From: Minutocellus sp. GHC0000111
Taxonomy: Eukaryota
Assembly: GCA_977018835.1 (NCBI GenBank)
Contig: OZ361258.1
Coordinates: forward strand, 4,030,001 to 4,094,000
Length of the DNA: 64,000 bases
Reading direction: 5' to 3'
The notes beneath the pieces are model-generated. The model did no database searches, was not told the DNA's origin, and was given only the letters and a program-made list of their open reading frames with translations. Made by a program: the position numbers and the translations under genes. The stretch's first letter is position 1, and each line of letters starts with the position of its first letter. Of the stretch, positions 31,385 through 56,982 are shown piece after piece.

Positions 31385-31621
31385 GCGCGGTGTGAAGGAG
31401 AGTACAACCATACAGCTGTAGGATAGTTTTGAGATTAGAGCGATCAGCACTATAGAATTTGAGGTATTGGGCACCTGCTGATTTCATCGTTTCGAAGATA
31501 CTGCTCAGCTGTACAACTCAGTCGCGTGGTTCAATCCAATAGCATTTGCGTCTACCACATACCCTTACAGTACATAGCTATACGATAGTAGCGTCGATCA
31601 AGCTCCGCGCCTTTACTATAA

Positions 31622-32644: not shown

Positions 32645-32738
32645 GCTCGTAGAATTTGCAGTAGAGCTTAACCTGTAGCGTGTAGCTGCCAGCCTACAAC
32701 TTTATCATATCTCGAGCTACAGTGGTGCCCTTTCACTA

Positions 32739-33689: not shown

Positions 33690-33951
33690 CGTCGTGGTTG
33701 TTTTTATGACGAAAAGTGAGTGAAAGTGCGGTCCGTCCGTCGCTTTTTGAAAACGGGATCAGACAAGACACAAGATGTGCCGTATCTTGCGTATCCGCCA
33801 AAGAGCTAGGAATTCCTAGGTCTAGAAGCTAGAGCGCTGCATAGAGGAGTGGAGAAGGAGTGCCACCGTGACCGCCCTCTAGTATCATCAGATTGGCAAT
33901 ACGGCTCAGATCAGCACGGTTTTTCTGGCAGTACCGCAGCGCGCCTCCAGA

Positions 33952-36155: not shown

Positions 36156-36749
36156 TCAAACTGTCAGCAAATGCATCGACCCAAGAAGAACGCCAAGACC
36201 AATCACTCCTCGATTGATGATGCAGGAAACATCGGAATTCGATAGCAGCCTTGCCAGCACAGCAATCACGAGGCTTGCCGCATCAAGCTGCAGAAATAAC
36301 TCGCCATTCCCAACAGCTAGCTCGATCACAGCCTCTATCGCAACAAGAGCGCCAATTATTGATAACGTTGTGCCGACCTTTGATCTGATACTTGGCTTCT
36401 CAACTGGCGGCGGCGGTATCTCGATTTGCTTGAGTCCCAGCCGAACGAGCAAAATATCAATGGCCGATCGGACCGACTCTGCCAGTTTTGCCAATGCGTC
36501 GTCTTGGTCGCCTTCATCGTCTACAGCCGCATTTCTACCGCCTCCACGAGGCACCGCTGCCATGGACGTATCCAAGTGGAACTCGTTTGATGGTCTGCTC
36601 TCTCGCCGTTGATGAGCTGTAACGTGTTTGGATCGCGACGGCACATGATGATGATGCGCTGGTCGAAGCGCCAAGACTCCTGCTGCTGCTGAAATGGCGC
36701 ACACCACAATGGTAAGATGAAAGAAAGAGATTAAGCTGCGCATGGTCAT
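36156..36749 (-). CDS. Signal-peptide protein with PRGG motif and C-terminal TMs, function unknown
   Basis: MTMRSLISFFHLTIVVCAISAAAG; three hydrophobic C-terminal segments. Confidence 0.55.
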   Translation of the reverse strand: MTMRSLISFFHLTIVVCAISAAAGVLALRPAHHHHVPSRSKHVTAHQRRESRPSNEFHLDTSMAAVPRGGGRNAAVDDEGDQDDALAKLAESVRSAIDILLVRLGLKQIEIPPPPVEKPSIRSKVGTTLSIIGALVAIEAVIELAVGNGELFLQLDAASLVIAVLARLLSNSDVSCIINRGVIGLGVLLGSMHLLTV

Positions 36750-36970
36750 TAAGCCACTCGTAGCAACGGCCCGATATTCTCCTGCACTCCTGGCAGCGGA
36801 GGATTGATTGTGAGCGGCAACCGGGTGGAGGCAAATTCTTTCTTTCCACGTCAAGCCAGAAAGCATGAAATTGACAGCAGAACGCCGCCAACCGTAACCG
36901 GCATACGGTATGGACCTGCCAACTCTTTAGACTCGTATGCGATACCCTCCTACCGGTATTCTTAATTATC

Positions 36971-38254
36971 TTACGAAAAGAATTGGAAAAAGTCCTCGTA
37001 TGGAGGCAATGGAAGCTTGTATTTGCGAATCTCCTTCACAGAGACTCCATTTGCTTTGTTCATTTCGACATCGACGTCGCTCCACACCGGAACCTGAAAG
37101 AATGAGTCCTTTGCTTTCTGAACACCAACATCGTCTTCTCCACCACTGCCACCTTCTTCTATCATCTCGGACAAGGGTTTTGCCCACTCCTCTTCAGCTA
37201 CACGGTTGAATGGCCTCGCGCTGCCATGTCCCTCTTTATCTTGAATGCAAATATCTTTCCAAAAAGCAACCATGAACGTCACCCGACGCCGTTCTCTGGA
37301 TGCCCCTTTCGATGCGCCGCCATCATCAACATTATCATCATTCGATCGAGCGGCAGCAACGCGCGGACCAGGAACAACTCCATGAAGCAAGTCACCTCGA
37401 AACACGAGTAGCCGATTCCTCTTGTTTGTACAGAGCCATCCCTTCGTGGCCAATGCTCTCCCCGATGACGTTTGTGTGGTGACCAATGTCTCTCCGCCCA
37501 TTCCAACATCAGACGATATATTAATGACGGTGCTGCAGACAGGGTTTCTCACGCCACCTCGTCCTTCATCATCGGAATCAAAGTGAAGCTGATGGCCAGA
37601 GGAGTGCGGTCGACAGTGAGCCCACCACTCACAATATTTGCACTCGTTCACATCTGGAAATACCTCCGATATCTGTCTTTGAATTTTTCTGATGATGATA
37701 TCAAGTGCTGTTGACGGCTGAGCCGAAGAAGCGTCATCGTTGTTGATTGGTACTATGTAGGAAAAGTATGGGCTGGGATCCTTCCCACCACTACCATCGC
37801 TATAGTCATGCCGCTCCCAAAATTTCGAGGTTGGCCCAAAGGTTGCATCCAATCGATGGAGAAGAGAATCGGATAGGATGCCATCCCATGCGGCCGAGTA
37901 TCGCAATGGCGGATTCGAGGGATTAGAGTGCTTACGTCTGAGCGACTCAACTGATAACCGATATGCGAATCCACGCTCTGATAACAATGTAGATGCTTCC
38001 TTTGTCGCATCCTCCTCTCTCTTTTGCAGCAGCAATGTAGCGAGGAAGATGCCCGTGTTGGTCCAGGTTGTCTTCTGGTTGGCATCACCGCCACCGGTCG
38101 TCTCTTGGATATCGTTTGTCGAGAGATCCGCCAGAATTTCTCGCAGCTTTACTTCCACTACCGACAGATCATCCTCACTCAATGCATCTGTACGAAGTGC
38201 ACGTATTTCGGCGAGGCGCCGGGCCAGATCACATGCGCCGGCGGTTGTCGTCAT
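36971..38254 (-). CDS. 2OG-Fe(II) oxygenase-like protein
   Basis: EWWAH...QLHFDSD...NRLLVFRGDLLHGV...RRRVTFMVAFW (HxD...H...R). Confidence 0.8.
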   Translation of the reverse strand: MTTTAGACDLARRLAEIRALRTDALSEDDLSVVEVKLREILADLSTNDIQETTGGGDANQKTTWTNTGIFLATLLLQKREEDATKEASTLLSERGFAYRLSVESLRRKHSNPSNPPLRYSAAWDGILSDSLLHRLDATFGPTSKFWERHDYSDGSGGKDPSPYFSYIVPINNDDASSAQPSTALDIIIRKIQRQISEVFPDVNECKYCEWWAHCRPHSSGHQLHFDSDDEGRGGVRNPVCSTVINISSDVGMGGETLVTTQTSSGRALATKGWLCTNKRNRLLVFRGDLLHGVVPGPRVAAARSNDDNVDDGGASKGASRERRRVTFMVAFWKDICIQDKEGHGSARPFNRVAEEEWAKPLSEMIEEGGSGGEDDVGVQKAKDSFFQVPVWSDVDVEMNKANGVSVKEIRKYKLPLPPYEDFFQFFS

Positions 38255-38357
38255 GGTTGAGTCTGTGGAATGATGCGAATTGATGGTGAGTGGGCCTGTC
38301 CTTCATCCGTCAAGCGAGGAAAAATGACCAAACCGCGGAACGGCGGGTCAAAGCACG

Positions 38358-38931
38358 ATGAGGCTCCCATCCGACGACAGCAGCTTAGAGGACGATGCCA
38401 GTGTGTCGGACAACCTCCCTGCGCATGTGCACGACGAGGAGCAGGTTGGTCTCGTGGCGGCGGCGAATCGCACAAAACGACTGTCCCGACGAACGACCTC
38501 TCGTCATTTGCCCTGGCTTTGCAAACGCAGGCGACAACCGTCCCCCCAGACCCATGGGAGGCAACAAGGACAAAACAACGAAGAGTGAGTGCGACGAAGG
38601 AAGTGCTGCTTCATGGTTTTAGTCACAGCGATTGTTGTGGCCGTGGCGGCTTGTTTGGTGATGGAGATGGCAGGGGAAAGCGAAGAAGCCACGCTCGAGA
38701 CAACAACGCACCATCAGAGTCACATCCAGCACATGACGATGTGCCGCAACTGATGTGTGTGTGACGAACACCAGAGAAAAGATGACGATGATTTGGCAAT
38801 TGACACTAGCTTTGATGACGATGACAACATTGTAAAAGTGACTTTGTCAACGAGACGGTCTATGCCAATGTTGTGGTGGATAAACCGAACGACGAAGAAG
38901 AGTTTAGTTGTTATCGGACAAATCGTCATGT
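38358..38931 (+). pseudogene. Degraded 5' part of a type II membrane protein gene, possibly the front half of the methyltransferase at 53477
   Basis: MRLPSDD...; after an in-frame TGA, VRRRKCCFMVLVTAIVVAVAACLV TM; then acidic linker ...SCYRTNRHV. Confidence 0.35.
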
Positions 38932-39402
38932 TGCTCGAATCAGCGGCGTGGAAAGCGAATCTGAGGATGAATTCTCAGGAAGTGCCGTTGCTTCAAAAAT
39001 CTCTTCTCTCTTTTTCCCTTCTCTCCTGTGCGCTGTGTGTGCTGTCGCGCGCGCGCGCGCATCTGCAGGTTGCTCTCCTCCCTTGTTTTCACTTACTTGT
39101 TGTGCTGCTTGCTGTGCGGTGTGAACCGCGCGCTCGAGTGAGTCAAACAGGCGAATCTGCTTCAAAAGCAGACGAGAGCTTGATTCGAGTGAGTCAAATC
39201 AGGCGCGTCTGCTTCAAAAAACGCACTTCTTAGCGCTCGACAATCTACAAATGGCGTTTCCTTCTTAGCGATCGAATTTTTTGCGTCACTCAATCACGCA
39301 AAAATAATTCCAAACGTGCGGCAGGCGGGCTCTCAAGACTTGGCCAACGTCACAACCAAGACAGACAGACCAACCCACTCACCCCTCCATCCACCGCTCG
39401 AG

Positions 39403-41187
39403 ATGGACGACAACGACGACGAATCCTCGGTCGACACTACGACACTGGCAGCCCGAGAGCTTGGGGAAAGCTCGAGGAAGCTGCTAGAGGCGGTCAAGGG
39501 TGGCAGGCTCAAGAACATCATCGAGGCCATGAACGAACACACCGAGACGTGGATCAATCAGGTCGATTTGGATCCTGACGTTGCTTCGAGCATACGAGAG
39601 GCGTGCCTAGTATCGTACAATCCCAACTCGCGGAAGCGAAAGAACTCTAGCGGTGGTTCTGCTGGAGGTGGTGGTGGTAATGGCGGTGGTGGTGGGGGTG
39701 GCAATGGCAACGGCAACGGCAACCAACAGCAGCAGCAGCAGCAAGAGGGCGAGCAATCAGGCGACGACGAGGCCAACGACAACGGTGACGCGACCGCCGA
39801 GGCGATTGCAGCGGCTCGATTGGCCACTCTCCAGGAATCAAGAGAGCACTGGCTGGGGCTCCGAGAGGACCGGAAGCTGGGCGAGTACAAGTCGGTCTTT
39901 GCCTTTGTCAAATTTCCCTCGATGATGAAAATGGCGGAGGAACGATTGGAGGATTGCTTCCATGAATACGACTGTGGAGATCCCCATTTTGTAGACGTTG
40001 TCATTGGGCAGATCATTACCGACTTTGTCCAGCAGCGACTGTTTGGGATGCAAATGGGAAGGGTGTACCGTCAGTCTGACGACGTGGCATGGAAACCGAT
40101 CTGCTTTAGAACAATTGGACAATTGGGCAATGCCCTCGATGAGGACAGCAATGGCACCAGCGCTGTCGCCTCTAGCCTCCCCATTGTAGAGGGCCTCAAA
40201 CTGGCTGCCGAGCAAGCCAGAGACTCGGGTATTTTCTCTCTGCCATCCAACCAGTCCGCCGATGCTCTTCTCAAGCAGTGGCTGACAATGGACGAGCCAT
40301 CGAGGAACTACAACCTCGTCATGTTGAACTGCCTTGCGGGATGCTATGCCTTCCGGTTTTTGGAGTTGTCGGATTTGACCGAGGGCGACGATCCCATCCT
40401 TTCCGACGACGTTCTGGATGCCATGGGAGTCGAGGAAGACGCGATGCCCTCCGACGCGAACGAGCTCCTTGTAATGTTCAGGCTTTGTTTCGACGATGGA
40501 GACATTGACCATGAAGACAAGGTGACCATCATGCTGTCCCTCCTTCGGATCATCAAGCTCATGAAGAAGTATCCCGACTCAACGTGGAAGAAGGTGGATG
40601 GGTACAAGAGCGGCAGTGGTGGATCTGTTGTTCATGCTGGCAGCGATGCTCGTGCCGACCTCGCTGATGAGGATGGTGACGATGGGGACGACGACGCGAT
40701 CAAGCGATACTTTACTACCACTGATCGAAAGAACAAGGCCCTGCTGGCCATGTCAGTGCTGGTGTGTTCTGACTTCATCTACGACTGTACTCGCGAGTCG
40801 GTCCTGTATGGCCAAAAGTTCAAGGGAGTCCTCCCTGTGATGCTCCGATGTTCGATTGACTCCTTTTTCAGGAACTCGATGTACCTAATGATGCGCAAGG
40901 TGTACGATGGATCAGCCACCGAGGAGTACATGACCACGGTCCACGAAGGCCTCAACAGCGCAGTAACGAAAGCGAATGCCGGTAGCGGCAGGGGACAGAG
41001 GCGCTCGACGTATGCAGATGACGTTGCAATCCTCACCAGCTTGGGTTGGTCCAAGAGAAAGTTCGATAAGCAATTCGCCCTCTATGGATTCGAGCTGGAG
41101 GAGGCCGGCATCGAGTGCTCCGAGGAGGACAGCGACAGCGACAGCGATGAGGAGGAGGATGGTGATGGTGGCGACAAGGAGAATTAG
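39403..41187 (+). CDS. Intronless hypothetical protein (594 aa), acidic ends, Gly/Asn/Gln tract, NLS-like RKRK
   Basis: Long ORF with coding-like composition; no family recognised. Confidence 0.7.
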   Translation: MDDNDDESSVDTTTLAARELGESSRKLLEAVKGGRLKNIIEAMNEHTETWINQVDLDPDVASSIREACLVSYNPNSRKRKNSSGGSAGGGGGNGGGGGGGNGNGNGNQQQQQQQEGEQSGDDEANDNGDATAEAIAAARLATLQESREHWLGLREDRKLGEYKSVFAFVKFPSMMKMAEERLEDCFHEYDCGDPHFVDVVIGQIITDFVQQRLFGMQMGRVYRQSDDVAWKPICFRTIGQLGNALDEDSNGTSAVASSLPIVEGLKLAAEQARDSGIFSLPSNQSADALLKQWLTMDEPSRNYNLVMLNCLAGCYAFRFLELSDLTEGDDPILSDDVLDAMGVEEDAMPSDANELLVMFRLCFDDGDIDHEDKVTIMLSLLRIIKLMKKYPDSTWKKVDGYKSGSGGSVVHAGSDARADLADEDGDDGDDDAIKRYFTTTDRKNKALLAMSVLVCSDFIYDCTRESVLYGQKFKGVLPVMLRCSIDSFFRNSMYLMMRKVYDGSATEEYMTTVHEGLNSAVTKANAGSGRGQRRSTYADDVAILTSLGWSKRKFDKQFALYGFELEEAGIECSEEDSDSDSDEEEDGDGGDKEN

Positions 41188-42285
41188 ATTATTAGATTGA
41201 GTAGATCTATGTGCAATAATAATTTATGTGCATGTAGCTACGTAGTAGTTAGATCTACTGTGCATGTAGCATCGCGGGGTGCATGGTGCTTGCTGCTTGC
41301 CCGGTTTGTAGATTTTCTTACAGGAAGCTCCCGATGACCCAGGTCTCGTTTTGCTGCTTGAAGCAATCCTACAGACAAAACACACAAAAGCAAAAGCAGC
41401 ACCACAACTTCTGCCACAACCTGACCATTGCCCACACCGCCTGTCGGTACCCAAGAGCATATCGTATCTCCCTCGCATACACACGCATATCATTGTCGTC
41501 GTCGTCGTTCGTCGTCGGTGTTATCGTCGTCGTTGTTGTATCATCCGTGAGTATCTGGCGCATCTTGTGCTCGTTCGTGTTGCCTTCGTCGGCCGGTCCT
41601 GTTTCCTCTCCTTCGTCGGCTGTCCTTTGTATTGCCTTGCATCTCTCATACCCAATCAATGCCTGATACCTTCCTTACTTTCTCTCCTCTCTATTATATC
41701 TGGCACATCTTTGTGCTCTCATCAGTGCTGGTGGCGTCCGTACCGCCCCAACGTTCCATCGTTCGGCGTCGGCCTTCCTTCAACTCATAACCTATTGACC
41801 ATACAATCCCCTCCTTCTCTTTGAGCACATACGCTGCCCACCACCGATACTTGGTCCATACCGCGCATCTGCCGCGCCGGCTGTAGGAACGAGGACCTTG
41901 TCGTATCCGGTCTCGTCGTCGTTGCGTCAGCGTCGGCTGGAGCTGTCTGCCTCAAGAAATACGTCCTTTTTAGTAACTGGTATCCAATACCGACCAACTA
42001 AGCAAGCACATCCCTGGTACATACATCAGCATCACGTCGGCCTGAGCGCTGTACTGTACTGATCGTCGTTCTCATCATCACCTTTGTTGTTCACGAAGGT
42101 TTGGTGCCTTTTGTCAGCCTCGTCTGTGCCATACAACCCGCCGCTAATACAATACTAGTACGGAGGCAAGGTCAGTCCATTATCTTTTCATTTGACTTTA
42201 TCTCAGCTGCAAGCCGATATATCTTATCGTTTCTTGACCATTATCTTCTTTCTATGCATACTAGTACCCTGTTGAGGCAGTCATC

Positions 42286-45200
42286 ATGGGCAAGACTCTC
42301 CCCAAGACCGAGGAGGCGAGGAAGAGGAGGAATTGGATAAGGAGGCAGCGGAGGAAGAGAGCAAGGGATCGCAAGAAAGGATTCCTTTTTCCATTTGAGG
42401 TATGTTGATGCCTGTATGTCATCAAATTGTGCAGAGATGCTACCTACCTAGGTACGTATTACATACAGACCTGTATTGTTGTGTGAAGAGTGTACTCTTA
42501 CGAAGTCCGTTTCGCGAGAAATCGAGCGCAGGGTCGGGACCAAAACAGCGACTTTTTGGGCCCGCAACCGCCTGAATCTTAGATCTACCGGCATTGAATA
42601 CATGTACAATGCAAAGTACATGTACCTAGGTATTGCAGCAGCTAGTATCCAGATCTACAATCCAATCTAGTATTATTAAACACAATATAACTTAAAAGCA
42701 CCGCAGGACTAATTATCCATGGTTGGATCAGCAGGAGGAGGAGCGATAATTTTCCCATCTATCCGAACCATGCCATTTTCAGTCGGCCTGAAATCCTTTC
42801 GCACCCCAACATGAATGCCTTCACCGTTTCCAAGAAAATCATTGTTGCCTTTTGCAACGATTACCTTCTTTGCAATTCTATGAGCCTGGATGTATGCCGA
42901 TGCGATCTTCCAGTTTTCCAGCCCCATCCAAACTTCCTCCGCTGCATCCCAAGTCTGATCCTCTGTCAAAACCTTCAGCCCCTCCCGATCGCGGCACAAC
43001 ATTGTATGCTGCTTTGACATGCAAGGGAAAACAGACAGATCAAGAACATTCATATGGGGCATTTGCGGGGCCTGAGGTTCCCAACGCCATCCCTTGTCCC
43101 GACAGCATCCTTCCACATATTCCACAAATTCAGTCTCGGCATGGGGCCCAGCATTGTCGCCCTGGAAAATAGGGACACAGCCTTCAAACTTTCCGCCAGG
43201 TCCGACCAAAGCCTCAACATCCGGAAATATCTTGTTCTCAAACAAAGCTTTCAGTGGGAACTTGGGATTATCAAGGGTGCCATGGCTGCATCCAGTCACC
43301 GCGCAATCCACAAGGTGTAGATCGTCTTTCTTCCGAACCACCGGGCCGCAATATTTGATTCTACCATCTGCCTGCCGCACCGCCTCCCTTACCATCTGCC
43401 TCGCAATTTTATGCGCCTGAGCCCGAAAAAGTCCAAGCTTGAACGCAATGCCGCCATTCTCAATGCTGTCAATAAAAGCCAAGGCAGTGACAGCTACCAC
43501 CATGCACTTGTTGATGTGATTTCGGTGATATGCCGAGAAGGACCGAGGATCAATACCCAATTCTGCAACTTGCTTGGCATACGATCGAAGAACCAAGCCC
43601 CAAAACCACTTCTCATCGAACATAACAAGGAGAAACTTGCCACCGCCGAGCCCCCAATTGTTTCGGAATTTCCGCGCAAATGCCAAATGTTTCTCCATCT
43701 GATGTGTAGTAAGGAGAGGGATGATCCTTTCGGCATAGTACCGGAACCCTTCCCGCGACATTATCCACCGCCGTATTGCCGAGTAGGAACACCAAAAGTT
43801 GACATCCACCTCCAGCTCCCGCCAAGATTCCCGAGGATTTCGTATCAGAGCATCAACAATAACATCTCGAATGCATGGCTGCATAGCCAGATGAGATCTC
43901 CTCTTCATCTCCCACATCGCCTTCTCAGATGCAGGTAGAGCACCACACGCCTTCATCCATCCCGAAAATCGTGCACCATGCTCTGCGCTGGACAGCACCG
44001 AATAGTCCACCTTTGCCTGCTCCCTGCACTTGGCAATTGCAAAGAGACATGGTGCAGCACACCGCCGGGTCGCCGTTGCAAGATCGTCGATGACAGAACG
44101 GAAGGCGGCCGAATCAGATGAATCATCGGCACTCGTTGGGAAGCAGTATACCGGTCCAAGTATGCCGATCGCGTCATCGAAATGCTCAGCTTCGACTTCC
44201 GCCCGAGACACAATGGATTGAACACATGCTCACCGCTGTCTTCTTGGCCATCATCATTGACCAGGAGAAAACTCTCAAGATTGACGGGCCCGAGGATTTT
44301 GAGAAGCACATGCTCCTCAATGTCGTCAGTCGACTCGTCTGCCGGGCGATAAGGGCCGAGAACATGCCCCTCGACATGGATGATGTCGTGGCAATAACTG
44401 AATCGGTGTACGACAAGGCCGCGGAGATGTTCCACTCCTCAGTTACCTTCATCTACAAGTTCAACGGCGTGAAGCGGGAGCTAAAGAAGCTCAAGCTCAT
44501 CCCGGATTGGCTGTGGTGCGAGATCCGGGACGAATGCATCATACTGCCGATCCGAGGCGAGCATCATGCCATCGTTCAAGATGAAGACGAGATGGAGGCC
44601 GAACCGTCGCGTCGCACGAACGCGTCCATTTGATTAGAGCCGCTGAAATCTAAAGTCTTATCCGAATTATTGTTTCACATGAAGATAAATCAAAATTAGA
44701 GTAAAAATAGCCATTTTCTTAAATATTTCAGCATGACTATTCTTCGAGGCGCTTTTCAATCCCCTCGAAAGCAGTCAAAAACCGGGCGCTCGATTTCTCG
44801 CGAATCTGACCTCGTATGTATCTGATATGTTGTTCCTTTTTCCGTTTAGTCTCAAACGCAGCCAGTGAGTGATGTCAGTCTGGCTATCCGCCCGTCTGAC
44901 TTTCCAACGCATAACTTTGCTGCTTGGCAACCGTCAATTTCGGGACAGCAGCATGATCTACTGCAGTCTCGTGCTGCATCGGGCGGCCAGCCTCGTGCTG
45001 TGCATGTATCGGGCGGCCAGCCTCGTGCTGTGCATGTATCGGGCGGTATCGATGGTCCCACCTTCCCACTGGCTCCGTCGTTCCAGCCTCGTGCTGTACA
45101 TGTATCGGGCGGCATCGATGGGCATGCCGGTACCTTCCCACTGGCTCCGTCGTTCCGGAGTCTGAGTGTCAGTTCTGATGATTCCCTATGGGGAGATTTT

Positions 45201-48200
45201 GAACCAGTTCCGTTGGGCCAGTCTTTTGCTGCATTGGCCCTGCATGCTGCCGTGGAGGGACGTCATCGACCGGATACTGGCTCTCCATCTCTCCGGAGAC
45301 AGAGTGTCTGTTCGGATGATTCCTCGATAGGTCTATGGGGAGATTTTGAACGTGATCCATCGCCACCTGTGCCACCTGATGCAAGAGTTGCCAGCCCAAT
45401 TGATCTTTTTGGTGTTGCGCCTGGTGGCAGTGGCATCGATCCTCGGACGGAATCTGCTGCAATTCATCGTCTCATGAATCGATCGGATGCCGGCCTTCCA
45501 TCACGTGGCGTTATGGCCGGCCAAGTCAACCCGAATCAGCATCGTCATAACGTTGTTTCTGATCTATCTGGTCATCAGAATCCCACCGTTGAAGTCCTCA
45601 ATGCAGGTGAGGGTGCTTTCCGCCGAGCGACTGAAAGTAATACAAGGGAGGCCATGTGTGTCATCCACAATAGGCAAGCCTTTGAGCTGGCGGATCACAA
45701 ACTTTTGCAACTTCAACAGACTGGGCGGTAAGTAGTGCCGGTATTGTCTGTATTCGAATTGAGATTGCTCTATTCACCAAGGGCGTACATGCATTCTCAT
45801 ACTTCTCTATTTATTCATTCTATATTTATCTGCACACACACAGAATCCGTCAAGATGATCTTCAGATCACCAAGCCACACAGCACGATCTACCATGACGT
45901 TCCTATCAAGACTTTCTCTTCATTGAAATCCGAGCTTATGTCCAAGCGCAACGTCAGGCTCGGCACTATGGGTGCTTTTGACACGCTGAATGCTCTTGTA
46001 AATGGATGCCCTCATTCTGCTGCTGAGATTCGTCGAGAGATTGATACCCACGATATTGTCATCCTGACTCTATATGTTGGTAGCCATGAGGGTCAAGGAG
46101 ATGGTCACGTTGTGCACGCGGTCTCGTATTCGGATCCCATCGACAAGACCATTCGATTTTTATTCATCGATACCTTGAACGCGATGCGTGACAGCCATCG
46201 AGCCTATTTTGAAGGAAAGTTCCGCTCCGCCGGTATCATCAAGCCCGAGGAGGTGATGATCAATGTGTGCTTCGATCAAGTCGAGCTCGAGTGCGCGGCT
46301 CTATCCTTTTACGTTGCAGTCGCCCTTAGTCGTTGGCTCGCGGAGGATTCATCTCATCGTTCGGCGAGTACTCTTCCACCTTTTCATGGGCGGTATGATC
46401 CTTCTGCTGTGCGAGCCTGGTTGTTTCGATCAGTTGTCGAGGTGACGGTAGAAGACGTCCATGGCCATCAGGCGGTACTCCCTACTCCCTTTGACTTTGA
46501 TGGTGTCATTCAATATCCGACAAATCTTGGTGGTGGCCCTTCCCACTCCGACTCTGATGATGAATCTACATGGACCACTGTTTCCCACGGTCGTCGCTCA
46601 ACATCACCCACGCATGGTACCAGCGCGCCAACTCCCACTCGTAACCGTCTGAGTCGGAGGAGCAAGACGATTGCCGGGAAACGACTAGCCCACACCGATT
46701 GCACCGTCGACGACGATGGCAGCGATGATGAGTTCCTTGATGAGGATGTTGAGGTAAGCACTGAAGTCCTGATAGCTTGGAGTTGCCATGATCTTATTTA
46801 CCGAATTTACTTCTCACCCTTTTCGTGCCTAATGCTGTCCTCACTCTACATGTTCATGCAGCATCGATCCTCTTCGTCTCGGGGCAACGTCGGCCGCCGC
46901 ACCACTCATCAGTCTTCTCGGCCGTCCACGTCTACTTCGTCCATTACATCCAACTCTACCGCCTCGTTCCGCTCCCCCTCGTCTCGCTCATCCCGCCGCT
47001 CGACTCGCTCGTCTCTATTTTATGATGACTACCAGCCAGACAGTTGGCAGAACATAGCCTCGTTCATGTTGCTCCAGTACCTTACCATTTTCGTGTCCTA
47101 CAACTACGTGGAGAACAGCACCACCCTCCCCCCGAAATATGATTCCCTCAAGTCAAAGGATGAGTACATTGAGAAATCATTTCGGGAAGCGATATTCCTT
47201 CAACGCAGTCCTCTTCAGTTGTATGCTGCCAAGGACCTCGGTACCAAGTACCATGCTTCGACCAGTGACGACGGTCGTCAGCGGTTTTTGCAACGACACC
47301 AAACCGTCGAATGCACCACTCTGCCCAACACAAGGGATCACCGTCTCCCTGGATTGGTGGCGCTGAACGAAATGAAGGTCCGCTGCGTGGACGGTGATAA
47401 CGAATTTGTACTCGTTCGCCTCAACAATCACTACGACAAGTTGTTGCCAATCATCGAGGCCGAGCCTGGCGTCCTCACCGATTCCAAGGTAATCAACGTC
47501 GACAAGGAACGAAACTCCCTTATTGTTCACATCGGCCCCACCGACGTCGACGCTGATCAGTGGATTCTAACTCCAAAAGGCAAGCGACCAGGTCATTTGA
47601 AGACCACCAAGTACATTGGCGAGACGTATCCCAAATTTGCGAGATGGATCGGGGAACTTCTGGCTATCATAACCCATGATTTCCAGAATGCGGTACTTGC
47701 GGCATTTCCTGACCACGAACCAATGTTTGTAATGACTCCAGTTCGTCAGTTCTACTGCAATGAATTCGCCTCTCTCATCGGATGCGACGACATTCGTCAT
47801 AAGATACTCGTTCCAGCCTGTTCGTTTGGGTTTGAGATGAGAAATCTGGTAAGTGCTTGTATTGGGATCAATGCCCATCCCCACGTTTACAAGTAATTTG
47901 CTTGTCCAGTTACTAATTCTGCCTATGTCTATCCTTCCTATTCCTCAGCTCGAGCATCTCGACACGAAGAATGGCGTCGGTGAGGGCAACAACTGGGTAA
48001 CCCTTGCCATGAAGATGTTTTCTCTGAGTTCCATTAGCCCCAAGGCTCGCTATTGTCTGGATCAGGCCGGTGTCGAAGGTACCGATATTATGTGCTACGT
48101 CATCGGATATACCCGCCGCATCGTCGACAATTGGGACAAGCGCACCAAGGCCAAAGTTCCGTCGTTGATCGAGAAGCCCGTCGAGCATCTCAGCCGGGTC

Positions 48201-49929
48201 CGTCGTCAACACCCCGGTTTCAATCTCAAGACCGTCATCGAGGACACCAACAAGCTCTCGGAAATCTTCACAGACAATGTTGTGGACGGATCGAGGACGG
48301 ACATTCGAGTCAATCGCTCAAAGGCAAAGACCGACCGATGCAGTTGCCGCAGCTGCCGCAGTGCTAGGTCCGGCGTCGTCCACGAGCCATGTGATTACCG
48401 CCATGGCCGGATTGCGGTTATCAATGGATGTAAGTTATTTTTTCGACATGCCGACAAGTAGATTTTTTTGCTGATGTGAATATTTTGTATTTTAACACAG
48501 TCTCATTTTCTAGTTGCATTCTCATTCTCATCTCTACCACATAGCTGAGTCGAGAGAAATCGGCTTTCTTGGGTCTCTCATTGATCTCATCCTCTTGGTG
48601 TCTTGTCGGTTCAAGCTCAGCATGTTCCAACTGCTGACCCTCGCCGTCGGAATCGTCGTTAGCAGCAATGGCGTGCTCAAGATCCTCCACATCCTCGAGG
48701 ATTGGGCCAACGATCGTTGCGTTTTGGGCTCCTTTTCGGAGTTTGTGTCCTCGTCACCATTTGCCAACCTGTTTCTGCTACTTCAGAAGGAGATTGATGG
48801 ACACCACTCTACTAAGGAGTGCATCAATCGCAAGAAGACGGCGACCCATCATGGTCGGTATCAGTTCCAGGCTGGTACCAACATGGCTTTTGACAGCATC
48901 TGCGATTGCCGATACGACGATAACGAATGCCTTGTCGAGGAGATGGATCCTCAGCTTCCTACCGAAGCGCCGCCGATGGGGGAGGTCCAACGTCGAGTGA
49001 TCAAGAAGAAGGGCCAGGAGCCTCGCAAGGACGGCTCGTTCAATATTTTGAGCTGGTTCGTTGCCATTATGCTGGTGCTCAAGGCTGCCGCCGCCATCCC
49101 TGCCGACCGAATTCAGTCCCAGTACAGTGGCCTCGTCGACAAGCTGAGCAAGTTGGATGGTTTTGGATCCTTCTCGGCCAACCTGCTAGTTCAACTATGC
49201 GCTCGCATTGGTCTTACCAGCGTCGACGTTGGTACCTGCGGTGGAGTGTGGTCCATGTCGCTTGGTACGTACAAATTCCTCAAGAGGTCTCTTGGCGATG
49301 ACGTCCCTCTGTCCCTCGAGAAGGCCCAGGAGATGTTCGACGAGCTACTTCGGTACCACCAGATGACCCTCAAGATGCATCATTTCACCGCCGAAGATCT
49401 CGATTCTACTCTTTGCGAGGCCAATCGTCTTCTTTGGGGCATTCCCAAGAAGGACGTGTTCCTGATATCTTCCACGGGTGAGCTGCAGAACGTCATTACC
49501 ATCCGCAAGAAGAAGATCAACTCCAAGAAGGGATACCGACCCGACAATACGACCAATGTGCTGACGATACACGCTGGCGGACATTACAACTCGCTGAGCT
49601 ACCGATACCAAGACCTATCCGAGGGAATTCGATTCCATTGCAACGTCGGTGAGCTCGATGATTGGACCCAGCGCGGTGGATACGTCCATGCCAATGCCTT
49701 GGATGCCATGCCATCCTGGGTGAAGCGCATGAGGCCCGTCGATCCAATCACCGGCGAGCTTCAGCACTTTCACTCCAACGTATTCGTGGCCCCGCGTATC
49801 GAACTGCCCAACGATCCGGTTATCATCGAGATTGATGACGACGAGAGCGAAGATAACAAGGGCGGCGAGGGAGACACTGGCTACGATGGTGGAAGTATCG
49901 GAAGTTGGTCGGATGTGGACTTTGAGTAA
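42286..49929 (+). CDS. ~1584-aa multidomain nuclear protein: Ulp1-like protease + TET/JBP-like segment + HhH/aGPT-Pplase-like helical domain
   Basis: Exons 42286-42399, 44850-45727, 45844-46753, 46862-47848, 47949-48429 and 48545-49929; all GT-AG, phases compatible, total 4755 nt. Confidence 0.7.
42709..44211 (-). CDS. Mariner transposase (true start codon unclear)
   Basis: FDEKWFW...QGDNAGPH...QAPQMPHMNVLDLSVF. Confidence 0.9.
   Translation of the reverse strand: MSRAEVEAEHFDDAIGILGPVYCFPTSADDSSDSAAFRSVIDDLATATRRCAAPCLFAIAKCREQAKVDYSVLSSAEHGARFSGWMKACGALPASEKAMWEMKRRSHLAMQPCIRDVIVDALIRNPRESWRELEVDVNFWCSYSAIRRWIMSREGFRYYAERIIPLLTTHQMEKHLAFARKFRNNWGLGGGKFLLVMFDEKWFWGLVLRSYAKQVAELGIDPRSFSAYHRNHINKCMVVAVTALAFIDSIENGGIAFKLGLFRAQAHKIARQMVREAVRQADGRIKYCGPVVRKKDDLHLVDCAVTGCSHGTLDNPKFPLKALFENKIFPDVEALVGPGGKFEGCVPIFQGDNAGPHAETEFVEYVEGCCRDKGWRWEPQAPQMPHMNVLDLSVFPCMSKQHTMLCRDREGLKVLTEDQTWDAAEEVWMGLENWKIASAYIQAHRIAKKVIVAKGNNDFLGNGEGIHVGVRKDFRPTENGMVRIDGKIIAPPPADPTMDN
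44226..44633 (+). CDS. Small ORF inside the mariner, opposite to the transposase
   Basis: Globular-looking sequence MLTAVFLAIIIDQEK...IPDWLWCEIRDEC. Confidence 0.35.
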   Translation: MLTAVFLAIIIDQEKTLKIDGPEDFEKHMLLNVVSRLVCRAIRAENMPLDMDDVVAITESVYDKAAEMFHSSVTFIYKFNGVKRELKKLKLIPDWLWCEIRDECIILPIRGEHHAIVQDEDEMEAEPSRRTNASI

Positions 49930-50249
49930 TGAGGGAGGCTTGTTTGGCTGTGACTTTTGAGTTGGATGTGAATCAATTTACCCGAATAGTAGTAATAATA
50001 ATTTGTATTTTATCGTCTTCATGCGATTTGTGATGAAATGAATCCCGTGCTATGTATTGTTACTGTTCTATCTATCTCGACCGAAGTTCGCAGGATCTAA
50101 AAATGTTTGCCTCCCAGGCAAAAACACTATCGCGATCAATTCGGGAGATTTACTGTTGGAGACCGTCGGATTTACAAATATTGCCATTCAAGGCAAGCGC
50201 TATCTCGATGGATTCGGGAGAGGGAAGGAAGACTGTCAGTCCAACAAAT

Positions 50250-51739
50250 CTACTCCAACGACTCAATGAACTCTTTGACTTCTTTCTTGCTCCGGAACAC
50301 TTGGTTGTTGTAGTAGTATATGTAGTACTTGTCACCGGCGTTCTTGCAATCACTCTTCCTTGTACCACGAACACGGGTGTCCATGGTCCAACCTGGACCG
50401 AATTCGGGGCAAGGCTGGTCGCCGACTTTGACTCCGGGACGGGGAATGCGCTCGTAGTCGTCACTCTCGTCGCTCTCCTCTCCATCATCGGACTCCTCTT
50501 CACCAGACTTATCCTCGTCCTCGCCGTCCTCGTCATTGGGCTGGAACTCATCATCGTCACCAGACTCATCCTCGTCCTCGCCGTCCTCGTCATTGGGCTG
50601 GAACTCATCATCGTCATCGGACTCAACCTCGTCCTCGCCGTCCTCGTCATTGGGCTGGAGCTCCTCATCGTCGTCGGACAGCTTCTCGTACTGGCCGTCG
50701 TCGGACTCGTGGTCATGCTCTTGGAGGGAGGAACGAGGCTTCTTGAGGCTCTGGGTCCTGGACCTGTTGAGGCTCCGACCGACCGTGTCAATGGTATCCT
50801 CGTCGGACGACGACTCCTTGCTGTGCTTCTTGTCGTAACGTTCGAGTTCGGACTCATCGGACGAGTCGAGCAGGTTGTTGTAGCCAGGAGACGTGAAGAG
50901 CAAGGAGTCATTGAGGAACGAGGTGTTCTTGGTGAAACTCTTGAGGAGCGAGGGATCCTTGAGGAACGAGGAGGACGCGGTGGCATCGAGGGACTTGTCA
51001 ACGTCATCGTCGTCACCATCCGAGTCGGTGTCCTCGATTGCATTGCGACGACGGAGAAGACGTCGGGGCTTGCTGACACTCTGGTGAGGCAAGAGAATGG
51101 AAAGTACAAGGCCACGATGGGACGATGGCTTAGCAGAAGCACGCAGTGGGACACACAGAAGGATACGATTTCGTCATTGGATACGCCAACAAACAAAAAG
51201 TAGAAATCAAAAAGATGTGGTCTTACCATCTCCTTGAGCTGGGCCAGGAGACCGGCGACCTCGGTCTCAAGACCGACGACCTTGGTCTTGTGTTCATCGA
51301 CTTCGTCGTCTAGCTCCCTGATGGTGTAGTTTTGGTCCTCGACCTTGGCCTCCAAACCCATCATCGTCTCTTCGAGGGCAACAATCTTTTCATCCCTGGC
51401 CTTGATCACCTCGTCCTTGGCCGTAATCTCCTCGCGCATGGTCTTGATCTCACCATCCCTGGCCTCGACCAATTCATCACTGCTGTCGTTGGCTTTCTGC
51501 AACTCGTCGATGAGATCACCATCTTGATTCTGCTCATTGAGCAGTTCGGTAACTGAATTGTTGAGACGACCCTGGAGCTGATTCGACTCTCCGACCATGT
51601 CCAAAGCACTCCTCAACGAAACACGCTGTCTCTTCCGGTCAACCAAAAGGCCGGTGACTGCCTTCACAACGCCATCCGTGCCGAGCATTGCAATGGCCAA
51701 GGCTTCTTCCCTCTCCTCGCGATGGTGTTCACTATCCAT
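50250..51739 (-). CDS. Coiled-coil + acidic repeat + C-terminal methyl-CpG-binding (MBD/TAM) domain protein; exons 51739-51227 and 51080-50250, 447 aa
   Basis: PEFGPGWTMDTRVRG...AGDKYYIYYYNNQVFRSKKEVKEFI matches the MBD pattern GW..e.r.R...D.YY.....FRSk.e+. Confidence 0.8.
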
Positions 51740-51818
51740 CTTGGTGTAGTATCGATGTATCAAGATCTGTGGTTGACTTCGAAATGAAAAAAAGTGTGGT
51801 CGCTTTTCGCATGTTGCT

Positions 51819-53444
51819 GTGACGGCCGAAGACAAGCGATCAAAGTTAGTCAATGACCTCATCAATGAATGGACCACCAAAGTCGTTCCGATTCTTGATG
51901 GTGCCTACCACGACCTCATTTCCACGGCTCCGCACTCCGAGATATCGGGTCAGCGCGAATATCGGTACCAGGTTGCCGACCCAACCGACCAATTCCAGAA
52001 TGACCTCATTGAGGTATACAACTCATCTATTCTATCCAAAGGAGAGGAGAAAGCCTGGTTGATTACGAGCAGAGTAGACTATGGAGTTTTGGCCAAGTAC
52101 ATCAGCGAAACGCCAGAGTTAAAGGAGATGAAGACTTTTCTCCAGCGTTGTTTCAGGTTCTGGCGAGAACACAGTGAGTCGACTCATGCCAATGTTCTGC
52201 GAACAAGTTTTCTTGTCGTTGCTAAGAATGCATTTATCTAACAAAATGAATTTTTTACTTTGTTCTAACCCAGCCAACCAAACGCGGAGACGCTCGACAG
52301 AGTGACGGCAGACTCGACCGAAGCCGCCGACCACCACCGAAAGGTTAGCAAGCACAGCGCCGAGCAAGGCTGTGACGCAAGGGAGTACGCATTCACCAAG
52401 AAGAAGTCGTCAAGAGAATACACTGCTGCAGTGTACGCCATGCGCCTAGATGGCGGCGAGAACGACGACCAACGCGCAGTCCGAAGCAAGATCGGAAAGA
52501 TCAACTCGAAGGCCAACAGCTTACGAGAATATTTCTTACCCGGCGACTCATACAACAAGAGACGCAAGCCATTCAGACTAGATCCTAGCAACTCAAACGA
52601 GACTGTTTCACCCGACAATGTCGTCGGCGAGATTCTGCTCGACATTGGGGAGATTGCAATCGGAACTCTCTTTGAAAAGGTCAAGTTTCCCCACACGAGC
52701 AACTACGCCATTCAGGCGATCGAGTCTCTTGCTACGGCGTCATTTTTTCCAAACCTCACAATTTGCCCATCCATTGACCAGATAGGCGACGGAGGAATAG
52801 CGTTGCTCAACAACGCCAATTGGAAGAAGAACCTCGAAGCGTTCCTAGACCTTCGACGAATCAACGGCGGAAGTTTTCAGTACTTTCCTGGGGGCGGCAC
52901 GGCAAAAACTCCAGACGAAAGAAAGAGACAGTCGCTTACGAATTGGTACAACAACGAGCTAATGCAGTACAAGAAGGGAGAAATGCCAATTGACCGAGTC
53001 CGCGTCTTGGATGGAATGAGGTTCTTCGAGAACAACAATCGGGGCCAGGACTACCTCAACAAGTTAGAAGCAAAATGGGTGCAAAGATACGACGATCTGA
53101 GCAACCTGATAGTCCAGCTAAAAGAGCAAACCGAAGAAGACGAGGGTGGCGAACACGAGGAACTTGACGACAACGATGAGGACAGTGAGATTGAGTGGGC
53201 ATCGGAATGGCCACTGGAAGAATTTTGGGTTTACCTACATTCGGATGACTATGGCCCGGACTCCAGAGAGTACAAACTTTCTAAGTGGTACAACGACCAA
53301 GTAGCACAGCTTGGGAGACACAAGCAACACACTACGAGTTCTCGGTTTGTCAACGGCGCTCTGCCGGAAATGTACCAGCAGAGGGCAGAGAATCTTCGAG
53401 AGCTAGGCGGCCCGCACTCTGACAAGCTTGGAAACTACAGTTAG
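51819..53444 (+). CDS. Helicase-associated (HA) domain-like protein; 5' structure unresolved
   Basis: LTNWYNNELMQYKKGEMPIDRVRVLDGMRF and KWVQRYDDL...LSKWYNDQ...QRAENLRELG. Confidence 0.55.
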
Positions 53445-53476
53445 GCCTACATTGAGAACTACATGTAAAATAGACC

Positions 53477-54065
53477 ATGATCGGCGATGACTTTATTTCA
53501 CCAGTAAAATGGCCATCTGCATTTAACGCGAAAGCTTTGGATCAAATAGCATGCCCGATGGGACCCCCTCCGCCCTCTGATAACGACAAACCGGGAAACT
53601 TTGACGAGCACATAGAAGCGGACAAAACAAAGCTGACTGCAACTGGCGCGCTTGCCGAGAGTACTGAGGACTACAGGAATGAAGGCTACGATGGATTTAC
53701 AATTTCATATGAACAGGCCAAGGCAAACATCTATGATTATATCACGGAGTGCTTTGTGCCCCCACTTCGACGAAATGGCGGAGGCTCAATTTACGAATCT
53801 GCATGCGGAACAGCAGCTAATTTGCTCATGACGCTTGAAATTATCTCAGAGAATGGCGTTGAAGATGTGACTGTTTATGGGTCGGAGTATGTCGCCGACT
53901 CGGTCACCGTTGCGAGGCAAATGCTTGAGGCGCACATGCCTGGTACCTTCCACATGGGATCAATATGCCAGGCGGACAGTACAAAGCTCGAGCACGTCCC
54001 ATCGAATTCGATGGATGTTGTTTTCACGGGCTATATTGATCCCCTGGTTGACCCTCTAAATTTGG
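53477..54065 (+). pseudogene. Class I SAM-dependent methyltransferase fragment, truncated at both ends
   Basis: SIYESACGTAAN, VYGSEY, CQADSTKL, SMDVVFTGYIDP; runs directly into antisense PDCD2 sequence. Confidence 0.65.
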
Positions 54066-55269
54066 ATCCAGAGGAAGACGGTACATTGGTGGAGCTCACC
54101 CACAGCGGTCCACCTTCCTTGGCTTCTCCATCGTCGTCACCATCGTCGGCGCCGGCATCGGTTTCCTTCCATCGGCAATACCGGAGACACTGTTCCTTGA
54201 CATCACCATCGCCTCTGCCAATGCGAGAGTAAAATTCAAGAGTAGCCGCATCGGATGTGCCAGTACCTGCCGCTCCGGTCATATCATTGAGGTCTGTCTG
54301 TTCCAGGTTCTCGTCAAGTTCTTCTTCGTCATCCTTCCCGTCATCGCCGCCCTCATCATCACCCATTTCTTCCACAATTTTCGCTTTCTTTTTCCCTTCG
54401 TCACTTGTGCTGAACATGGCCACCTTATCCATCTCTTGTCTCAATCGCTCTTCTTCGTCTGCGGTTGTCTTCTTCGATGTTGGCTCATCCTCCACAACAA
54501 GCTCCGATTCCACATAAACAGATGGCAATAATTTCGATATGGCGTCTTCTTTATCATCGTCCTTGGCATACTTATTGTATTCCTATTGATGCTCCTTGCC
54601 ACAGAACCACAAGTCTTGCTTGGGACAACGTCCGCCCGCTTTGCAACCACAAACAGCACAAAGGTTGACCCCGTGAACCTCTGACTCATTATGGGTCCAG
54701 TCATCAAAGTCATCTTCTCTATCTTTTGTCGACCGAGGATAAAATTCGTTATCTTGTGGCAACTGGCTGCGCAATACCAGCACGGAATCTGGTGTTGGGT
54801 TGGTCGAGCATTCCGCCGAGGGACAGGCAAACACATACAGCGTCCGATGGAATGCGGCTGGATTGGGCGGGCTGCTCTCCTCATCGGCCGGACAATACGT
54901 TTGGCACAAGAAGCGCATGATCGTTGATTCTTTTGTTTTTGAAGAATCGTTGCCCAAACCATTGCCATCGTCATTTTCCTGGGCTTCGTTGCGTTTGGCA
55001 CATGCTCTGCATCGGAGAGGACCAACTGGAACATCCCGTGGGTTGAGCAAGCTGGGCTTTCCACCTATCTTGCCTCCATCCCAATCCGACCAGATGGGTG
55101 AATTGTGAGCAATTGCCTCGAGATCACCCGGTGATTCAATAGGAACAGAGAATCCGAGATGTACAGCTATCGATGACGCCGAGGCGGCGGAGGCATCGTC
55201 GTTGTCCACCCACCTGGGTGGGTGGACGACAGATGAAAAATGAGTGAAGCTGAAAGGTCTGTCCGTCAT
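54066..55269 (-). pseudogene. PDCD2: PDCD2/TSR4-like protein with in-frame TAG (54583-54585) and missing C-terminus
   Basis: GKIGGKPS, FLCQTYCP, FHRTLYVFAC, VLRSQLPQDN, MYND-like CAVCG...FCGKEHQ, QCLRYCR, PLWVS. Confidence 0.8.
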
Positions 55270-55681
55270 CCATTTTCGCTAGGAATGACACCCGGATACG
55301 CGAACATCCAGGATCAACAGTGATCCTACTAGGACCCGGAATTGTGAAAAACAGGAGGAAATCCTGGGAAATTCGATTTTTTGTGAAATGGAGCTCTGAC
55401 CTCATGCGATGCACCAATGAATAGATCTCACAAAGTTACACCTGGGTTCGAAAGTCCGAAGTTTCAATTCCGAATATTAGTTGAGATATTCGCACATCAT
55501 GGGTGCTTCGCCCTTGCTTCCACGCGTTGAGTTTTTCTCCCAAAATCAGGCCTTTTTTCCTCCGTTTTTCGCGCCGCTGGGTCCTAGTATGCATTCAAAG
55601 CAAGCCTCACAACACAACAAAAGAAGCAAAACGCCAATACCAGCACCCCTGTGCGCACACCACGAAGAGAAATATTGCAAT

Positions 55682-56152
55682 ATGAAATACGAAAAGGTTG
55701 TCCAGAAGGAAAACGAAGCCAGCATGGTAATTGTAAATGCAGAGCGAGTGGGCGATGATGCCCCAGTATCTTTTTCCGCGGATGCAAATAAAAATCCTTA
55801 CGAGGACGATGAGACTATCGTCAGCGAGGACAATGGGAAGCAAGTTGCCCATGGTGCCGCATTCTTCTGGGGCCTCTTTGGTTGCATCCTTGGCGGCTTC
55901 CCTCTAGCACTGCTCGGTGCTTGGGGCGGTGCTCACACGGCCACTCACAATGATGGTCCTGTTGGAGAATTATCCCGAAGTCTAGGAGAAGTTGCCATCG
56001 CCGCAAGCAATAAGGCGAAGGAGAAACAAATCAAGGAAAAGACCGGTAAGGTAGCCAAGGCAACGGTGAGACAGCTGAAGGAGTCATTCAAAGGCCGCAA
56101 AAATACCTCGGCGACCGCATCCTCCCAGAATCCGAATGCACAAGTCCTTTAG
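55682..56152 (+). CDS. Small protein with Gly-zipper hydrophobic segment, function unknown
   Basis: GAAFFWGLFGCILGGFPLALLGAWGG...GELSRSLGEVA. Confidence 0.6.
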   Translation: MKYEKVVQKENEASMVIVNAERVGDDAPVSFSADANKNPYEDDETIVSEDNGKQVAHGAAFFWGLFGCILGGFPLALLGAWGGAHTATHNDGPVGELSRSLGEVAIAASNKAKEKQIKEKTGKVAKATVRQLKESFKGRKNTSATASSQNPNAQVL

Positions 56153-56242
56153 CACTTTTATTTGTTTGTTTGTTCAGAAAGCGAAAAATGCTTGAAAATC
56201 CGAAAATAGAATGATTGTATATTAGAGATAAAAGAGTTGCAT

Positions 56243-56982
56243 CTACCACATGCTTTCCAGCCGCTCTTTCAAGTACTTGGCTACGCCATCGTTGGCGGCC
56301 AGCTTGTCGGCAATAGCGTTCAGGGCAGTGCATTTCTCGGCCGCCTTGGCAGTGTCCTCCAAATCAGCGGCCATGCAATCACGAAGCAGAGCCCAAATGA
56401 CGACATCGGCATATGAAGTGCTTGATCCATATGCGTATCCCTCGCTTCCGGTCTCCTTGATCACTGCTTCAATCTTTCCCAACATCTCAGGCATATCACT
56501 CTCGAACCATTCCTTACGAAGCTCGGCCTTTTCCTCATCTGTCTTTCCCTTAGCAAAGCGGCTGAATCCCTTGCGCATGGCAGCATCCTTGACATCACGG
56601 CAGTGCTCGGCGATACAGTCAATCATGGCCTCGTCCTCGGGCGTTTCTCCCACCAGGCCGAAACGTCGCGAGAGGTATCGCTCAATGGCCTTGCTTTGGC
56701 CGATGGTAGCACCGGATGGCGTGATGAGTACGGGCGCTCGGTTCAGATTCATTTTGAGCTCACCACTTTCCTTGGCCTCATTAAAGTGGGGGAGCTGAAC
56801 GTCTTTTGGTCAATGGCAAAGCGATCGTCATCATACACCTCACCCCCCAGAGCGAAGAGGATGCGTGAAGTCTCGGTAGCTCCCTTGATGTCGAAGTATC
56901 GAAGCCGATAGTTCGAACCGCTGGTCGCCGATGCCGATGCTACTGATAGCGATGCGACGAGGAGAAGGTTGAGGCGCATCAT
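56243..56982 (-). CDS. Glutathione S-transferase (Tyr-type, sigma-like) with signal peptide; apparent 1-nt frameshift near 56790
   Basis: YRLRYFDIKGATETSR, NRAPVL, IGQSKAIERYL, SYADV; one added C in the C5 run restores ...SPHFNEAKESGELKMNL. Confidence 0.85.

Follow-up and report, generated by a model that had tools for sequence, protein, structure and literature searches.

We analysed a window of 64,000 nucleotides (positions 4,030,001 to 4,094,000 of contig OZ361258.1) from the diatom Minutocellus sp. GHC0000111, in which a block of unusual genes lies between two parts of a host methyltransferase gene (Table 1). From left to right, the block contains an orphan open reading frame (ORF), a large intron-bearing fusion gene with protease-like, dioxygenase-like and transferase-like regions, a gene for an MBD-like protein and a gene for an HA (helicase-associated) domain protein. 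An element of the Tc1/mariner type is nested in the first intron of the fusion gene. The four cargo genes are those listed in the original prediction, which had been made from the letters of the window and had taken the block for an insertion of about 14.5 kb that splits a methyltransferase gene.

Table 1. Features of the inserted element and of the interrupted host gene (positions in the window)
Feature	Position	Strand	Description and basis
Host S-adenosylmethionine (SAM)-methyltransferase, 5' half (N-terminal acidic part, membrane anchor)	38358-38977	+	tblastn with P0002/P0006 (E about 1e-10), P0004, P0005
CA, left copy of 2-base junction overlap	38976-38977	+	joint of 38975 to 53514; target duplication or microhomology
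Inserted element	38978-53513		14,536 bp between CA copies, ~12.2 kb without nested mariner; empty site in X1, X3, X5, X9
Left subterminal repeats TGCTTCAAAA	38989-39219	+	copies at 38989, 39158, 39210
Orphan ORF	39403-41187	+	594 amino acids from ATG at 39403; acidic, predicted mostly helical
Fusion gene, spliced 5' leader	41409-42285	+	introns 41547-41725 and about 42169-42262; GT..AG joints, RNA run X9
Fusion gene, 6-exon computed model	42286-49929	+	1,584 amino acids, one open frame, five GT-AG introns
Fusion gene, exons	42286-42399, 44850-45727, 45844-46753, 46862-47848, 47949-48429, 48545-49929	+	computed model
Tc1/mariner in fusion intron 1	42499-44816	-	TA-bounded, 36-nt inverted ends
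Ulp1/C48-like protease region	45844-46480	+	H419, D440, Q476, C481; motif order by eye
TET/JBP-like dioxygenase region	47027-48130	+	H966-x-D968-xx-N971, Y1017-T-R1019; family alignment, P0033 fold searches
Helix-hairpin-helix, aGPT-Pplase/amino-acid:DNA-transferase-like region	48545-49600	+	G-F-G hairpin at residue 1329, C1414-E1415
Coiled-coil and acidic-repeat protein with C-terminal MBD-like domain	50250-51739	-	about 445-465 amino acids, one intron
HA domain gene	51777-53444	+	PF03457, E 8e-6; start approximate
CA, right copy of junction overlap	53514-53515	+	joint and frame context
Host methyltransferase, 3' part	53516-54079	+	78-91% to P0002-P0006; ends at 54080

A homologue search with the 3' fragment of the methyltransferase gene returned 26 proteins, and tblastn comparison with this family showed that both fragments are matched by the same full-length relatives: P0002 (437 amino acids), P0004 and P0005 each match both 38358-38831 and 53537-54085. 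Hence we take the two flanks, on the sequence of these relatives, to be halves of one membrane-anchored SAM-methyltransferase gene, in agreement with the original prediction. The named relatives of the methyltransferase come only from Proboscia and Attheya, as they do for the cargo fusion. Damage to the host gene comprises TGA codons at 38586 and 38751 in the 5' half, where there is also a frameshift near 38830, and a 3' half truncated at 54080; the relative P0001 extends 117 amino acids beyond the sequence of the window.

Allele and copy evidence was taken from the contigs of four runs, 4 among the 20 listed runs that share sequence with the window, which were compared over positions 36500-56400 at 85% likeness; runs that share only a small fraction of sequence words with the window were left aside. 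X1 and X3 belong to one study, X5 and the RNA run X9 to two separate studies, and contig depth is not to be read as copy number. In all four runs a contig was found that links 38975 directly to 53514, at depths of 81, 80, 7.2 and 3.4 in X1, X3, X5 and X9, respectively. This empty-site joint omits 14,538 bases, with 2 letters (CA) compatible with either side. The left reading frame, ...EDEFS to 38977, continues in phase and free of stops into the right frame, SAFNA... from 53516. The joined frame agrees with the acidic run that precedes the conserved CP motif in P0002 and is contiguous in the relatives P0002, P0004 and P0005; the empty site costs the host gene no bases, and the methyltransferase frame is restored. 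Contig depths in X1 were 87-98 in the core and 138, 167 and 177 in the flank contigs, and the sum of joint (81) and core (94) stands against 177 on the adjoining flank contig. The core and flank values were 87-88 and 126-144 in X3 and 8-10 and 11-17 in X5. One filled and one empty allele fits the depth pattern in all three non-RNA runs; the assembly may itself derive from X1 or X3. From the empty site, the restored frame and the depths we conclude that the island, 14,536 bp long from one CA copy to the other, is a derived insertion with ends fixed to within 2 bases. That the island is ancestral and the empty site a later deletion, or that the join is an assembly artefact, deserves next to no credence: the joint contig comprises 30 letters per side and the 85% likeness setting carries a flagged risk, but the joint recurs in three studies, the depths add up and the frame that it restores is contiguous in three relatives, by which both possibilities are largely refuted.

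The original prediction was thus right about the insertion and about the split gene but had placed the boundary elsewhere, at a direct repeat of CATGT. The two copies are present, at 38927-38931 and 53462-53466, but the true joint lies about 50 bases away. CATGT was rejected as the target duplication: the window has 77 occurrences of it, 20 of them within 38.0-54.5 kb, and the overlap at the joint is CA, 2 bp. The CATGT pair is a chance match, and an in-frame join is given by 4 of the 8 5-mers common to the surroundings of both breaks. The TAG codon and the residues MIGDDF that had been read as host frame across the presumed boundary are both element sequence.

Between the CA copies the element reads GGAAG...ATGGC. 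The CA overlap may be a duplication or a chance match, random insertions showing a junction overlap of at least 2 bases in 16% of cases. TGCTTCAAAA occurs in the window in three exact copies, which all fall within 245 bp of the left end, those at 39158 and 39210 as parts of a duplicated unit of about 40 bp; there is none at the right end. Only weak hairpins (-2 to -4 kcal/mol) were predicted at the ends, Rfam gave nothing in 38-55 kb, and at E 0.01 neither the element ends nor its genes matched another part of the window. The contig matches listed showed no loose end at the left or the right terminus. GC content did not distinguish the island from its surroundings; third-position GC was 0.58-0.72 in the four cargo genes and 0.49-0.62 in 12 flanking ORFs (two out-of-frame rows excluded), a difference that is suggestive only.

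The two terminal genes of the element, the orphan ORF and the HA gene, occur in additional copies in these runs, whereas the core is single, as is expected of a family with deletion derivatives. The orphan ORF has a depth of 270-340 over its coding part, compared with 87-98 in the core, which points to additional, diverged copies, one of them in the RNA run X9 (record 23). In the HA gene, the segment 52586-53488 is present at double depth (188 and 159, compared with 94 and 88), and a joint of 51847 to 52586 marks a second, shorter version of the gene that is near-identical over 52586-53488. This second copy (51812-51847 / 52586-53488) is shorter by 738 bases, the missing stretch lying between two TAG triplets, and its upstream sequence seems to be different.

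The position and copies of the orphan ORF raise the possibility that the element is autonomous and belongs to an undescribed class, in which the product of the first gene would be the mobiliser, with the left-end repeats as its binding sites and a 2-base core as its cutting site. The gene, the first one from the left end, is intact, occurs in several copies, has a diverged copy in the RNA run and has one relative, P0028 (81%), in another assembly. No match to a recombinase or transposase, or to anything else, was found for it in Pfam, PHROG or Atlas, however, and the predicted structure is mostly helical with two short strands, though its pLDDT (predicted local distance difference test) value of 33 makes the model little informative. 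An accessory role would fit equally, as for red-algal PAG1, whose function is unassigned. We regard a mobilising function of the orphan protein as distinctly unlikely.

The nested element has the inverted ends, TA flanks, DDD transposase and high copy number of the Tc1/mariner group. Its transposase ORF (42709-44229) matches HTH_Tnp_Tc3_2 (E 2.2e-6) and has a D,D38D signature as counted; depth reaches 14,000-42,000 in X1. The insertion leaves the reading frame of the fusion intact. The original statement that no transposase is present therefore holds for the large element itself but not for the island as a whole. The mariner transposase was rejected as mobiliser of the large element, which has neither TA flanks nor mariner ends. 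Other mariner copies in the runs carry an extra A after 44211 and 3 bases fewer at 44239, and a second ORF lies on the plus strand at 44094-44633.

The fusion gene encodes the largest cargo protein. RNA support for splicing covers the leader, whose X9 contig (record 24) has no letters that differ otherwise; splicing of the coding exons rests on the computed model. In the first region the residues H419-D440-Q476-C481 stand in the order that we take to be typical of Ulp1 proteases, the Trp after the His being absent, and no match to this region was found in Pfam or PDB. When exon 4 was queried against 1.84 billion representatives, six relatives were found, and a profile search added three more, two of them named Attheya. 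The full-length relatives of the fusion share its two-domain layout, and a profile of the six relatives from which the fusion had been excluded matched it at residues 744-1073 and 1323-1449 (E 7e-36, single-sequence search). In the seven-row family alignment, which represents about four independent clusters, the HxDxxN and YTR motifs are invariant in 7/7 rows. The HxD iron ligands are present, and a conserved His lies far upstream of HxD.

The predicted fold of the relative P0033 may be that of a dioxygenase of the TET/JBP type. Foldseek placed 2-oxoglutarate dioxygenases in 9 of its top 10 rows. The top 26 rows of a second comparison were all FTO, TET2, NgTET1, CMD1 and CcTet at Z 5.0-6.3; with this low-confidence model the values were Z 6.3 for FTO (root-mean-square deviation (rmsd) 5.5, 175 residues aligned), 6.0 for TET2 (rmsd 5.4, 208 aligned) and 5.7 for NgTET1 (rmsd 4.9, 149 aligned). 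An unbiased wide search was led by generic helical bundles and returned NgTET1 (Z 5.6) and FTO (Z 5.8) for the dioxygenase region and two AGOG glycosylases (Z 6.0 and 5.2) for the C-terminal region. In Atlas, the C-terminal part of the fusion lies at 0.94 to clusters of PF18723 and at 0.93 to clusters of PF18724, both phage base-modification families. The Cys of the transferase-like region is present in 5/5 rows that reach this position and is followed by Glu in 3/5. This aGPT-Pplase-like region had no Pfam match. PDB sequence searches gave no useful match, and PHROGs only weak families of no stated function.

The nearest Atlas clusters of the C-terminal domain are mostly viral, as might be expected if the island were an endogenised virus or a virus-like remnant that brought phage-type base-modification genes. 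Its genes, however, have spliceosomal introns throughout, the searches brought up neither a capsid gene nor one for a polymerase or for packaging, and the only named relatives of the fusion are diatom proteins. Phage records gave no tblastn match, viral contigs no relative and a viral structure library nothing at E 0.001, and neither metagenome nor viral contigs yielded a genomic context for the relatives. We therefore consider a viral origin to be very improbable.

The original prediction had assigned the cargo the roles of a writer, a reader and a deSUMOylase, which are plausible from sequence to unequal degrees. A writer is favoured by the fold and language-model comparisons, the reader depends on a weak Pfam match of the MBD-like domain (E 0.032), and the deSUMOylase assignment did not gain a Pfam or PDB match beyond the motif seen by eye. 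The acidic part of the MBD-like gene contains an in-frame 57-bp tandem repeat (50500-50672; 3 copies, 94%).

The host locus shows further rearrangements. At 54077-54080 a second break truncates both the methyltransferase gene on the plus strand and a minus-strand gene (54079-55278), which we take from its motifs to be PDCD2-like and which has no Pfam match and an in-frame TAG at 54583-54585. X3 has 1,382 different letters preceding 54077, P0001 retains a complete methyltransferase C-terminus, and X9 spans the 54077-54080 junction as the window does, so a deletion polymorphism is likely at this position. The relative P0003 opens with a match to the neighbouring gene (37873-38010, minus strand) in another frame and then continues as methyltransferase, which suggests an independent rearrangement of this locus. 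A 43-base presence/absence difference separates the window from X3 and X5 at 36867-36911. The short repeat at 55317-55587, with inverted ends CTAGGACCC...GGGTCCTAG, raised depth, many differing flanks and an empty-site joint of 55316 to 55588, is a miniature inverted-repeat transposable element. Elsewhere, the window carries a gene of the chlorophyll a/b-binding family, in keeping with a diatom host, and two divergent leucine-rich-repeat ORFs, GC-rich and 684 and 1,387 amino acids long (21738-28363). At 28794-35001, Sel1 and MYND-finger genes on either strand are clustered about a rhomboid-UBA gene and likely arose by local duplications.

We compared the element with known systems as these are described in the papers cited here and below. 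Fungal transposons of the KDZ, Plavaka, EnSpm, ESTA, hAT7, IS3EU, PHISTA and Helitron groups are likewise large and carry a TET/JBP-like dioxygenase (PMC12730594). The element described here differs from them in its diatom host, in that no transposase and no 6-8-bp duplication were found, in termini that are neither CA..TG nor TGT..ACA, and in a dioxygenase that has no distal His and is fused to protease-like and transferase-like domains. The giant KDZ, EnSpm and Sola-1 families of Ectocarpus share with it a stramenopile host, a size above 10 kb, a nested unrelated transposable element, transcribed accessory genes and DNA-modifying cargo, some having no transposase of their own (PMC12477816); there the cargo is a ParB-methyltransferase, whereas here it is TET-like and transferase-like, and the ends assign no superfamily. 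The PAG1-3 cassette of red-algal Plavaka elements also combines several accessory genes, among them an orphan, a gene for a putative 2-oxoglutarate oxygenase and genes for chromatin enzymes, and action on the element itself has been proposed for it (10.1101/2025.02.11.637652). In our element no ParB, SET or adenine methylase domain and no DDE transposase was seen, and the likeness is one of description.

CryptonS elements of oomycetes and diatoms resemble the element in their stramenopile hosts, lack of inverted ends, low copy number and possible Ulp1-related C48 peptidase (PMC3212892), but no tyrosine recombinase was found here, the overlap is 2 bp instead of 5-6 bp, and the CryptonS repeat TATGG is absent within 38900-39100 and 53400-53600. 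Starships are low-copy large cargo elements with a short direct repeat, no clear inverted ends and a first gene at the 5' end, for which the orphan ORF would be a candidate (PMC11162782); the first gene here has no DUF3435 match and the host is not a fungus. Thymidine hypermodification in phages brings together TET/JBP enzymes, 5-HMUDK and amino-acid:DNA transferases (PMC8989533). The fusion resembles it in joining dioxygenase-like and helix-hairpin-helix transferase-like regions and in the Cys followed by Glu, but it is eukaryotic, intron-bearing and a single chain, no kinase was seen, and sequence similarity is too low for Pfam, PHROG or tblastn matches.

Against the 7-8-bp duplication of KDZ elements (PMC12730594) stands a 2-bp overlap, and the sole transposase-like ORF is that of the mariner. 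The 2-5-bp duplication of the CMCT group (EnSpm, Plavaka, ESTA) is matched by CA, at a chance level of 0.16; CA..TG or TGT..ACA termini with inverted repeats are absent. Helitrons characteristically end in CTRR; terminal direct repeats with a hairpin are the other mark of the Helitron/Replitron group. No HUH endonuclease ORF of the Helitron or Replitron type was found in the island, and the ends fold weakly. Replitrons are described as undetected in diatoms (PMC10288648). Since the terminal tests failed for KDZ, CMCT and CryptonS and no match to a Starship captain was found, we file the element under none of KDZ, CMCT, CryptonS and Starship.

With a confidence slightly better than even, we favour the reading that the element is a giant non-autonomous DNA transposon that would be moved by an enzyme encoded elsewhere and carries a predicted anti-silencing or self-marking cargo. 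Partial extra copies of both end genes and the left-end repeats lean towards an element family over repair. There is precedent in the giant transposase-less families with nested transposable elements in Ectocarpus (PMC12477816), in the TET/JBP cargo of 11 fungal transposon lineages, which has been proposed to counter silencing by 5-methylcytosine (PMC12730594), and in the C48 peptidase cargo of stramenopile CryptonS (PMC3212892); in a diatom, young transposable elements are repressed by DNMT5-dependent 5-methylcytosine (PMC9998398). The transposon would be mobilised in trans, possibly through binding of the mobilising enzyme to the left-end TGCTTCAAAA repeats. The TET-like domain would oxidise a methylpyrimidine, the helix-hairpin-helix domain would transfer a group to the oxidised base or excise it, the protease region would remove SUMO, and the MBD-like and HA proteins would provide targeting. 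Together, an MBD-like reader, a dioxygenase-like writer or eraser and the transferase/glycosylase-like and SUMO-protease-like domains could form a coherent kit that lets the element escape silencing.

Several observations weigh against this reading. Inverted repeats were looked for at the corrected termini and none was found, as the original prediction had also reported; the left end itself appears, from a depth of 93 near 39305, to be single-copy; among the contigs of the four runs, none showed the same two ends inserted between other flanks; and the left flank contig of X1 has a depth of 138 where a sum of 175 would be expected. X9 contigs are lacking over the coding part after the mariner (45132-50443), which we do not take for a lack of expression, contigs being evidence of presence only. 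For the fold, the evidence is a model of the relative P0033 with a mean pLDDT of 43.8, for which Foldseek gave no match at E 0.001 or better and the fold comparisons no Z of 8 or more. No conserved His lies between HxD and YTR in 7/7 rows, so the usual iron triad is incomplete, and no kinase was found in the island. The phage transferase class places amino acids onto a kinase-activated hydroxymethyl base, requires this activation and sometimes adjoins TET/JBP genes (PMC8989533). Because the distal His and the kinase are missing, the fusion enzyme may do different chemistry or merely bind DNA.

Some of the same observations could reflect a one-off capture, in which end joining placed a segment of genomic or extrachromosomal DNA, possibly a fragment of a larger element, in a double-strand break, with CA as microhomology and the piece not mobile itself. 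Neither a mobiliser nor inverted ends were found, a 2-base overlap has a chance probability of 0.16, core and left end look single-copy, and the locus is prone to rearrangement, as shown by the second break at 54077-54080 and the 738-base skip. Yet the piece comprises only whole genes of the element type, none of them an ordinary host gene, its non-coding ends are short, repeats stand at its very left end, and at the empty site no host bases are missing and the frame is restored. Such a capture is, in our estimation, unlikely, though to be taken seriously beside the favoured non-autonomous transposon. The most far-reaching version of events, an undescribed class of diatom element that is moved by its orphan protein at a 2-base core, in which one TET-like and amino-acid-transferase-like enzyme with a non-standard iron site writes a phage-type hypermodified base into nuclear DNA, accompanied by its own MBD-like reader, appears decidedly improbable when taken as a whole.

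Giant elements with epigenetic cargo are known from fungi, brown algae and red algae (PMC12730594, PMC12477816, 10.1101/2025.02.11.637652). In a literature search that did not extend to two older papers by Iyer et al., we found no report of a TET-bearing giant element in diatoms and none of a eukaryotic fusion of TET-like and amino-acid-transferase-like domains, which those two papers possibly cover. Algal TET/aGPT fusions may reportedly be described already in Iyer et al. 2013 (Nucleic Acids Res) or Iyer et al. 2014 (PNAS). An active fusion would mean that an unknown modified base may exist in diatoms and that the enzyme behind it works without the usual third iron ligand; where a filled and an empty allele occur in the same strain, the modified-base reading is directly testable between alleles.

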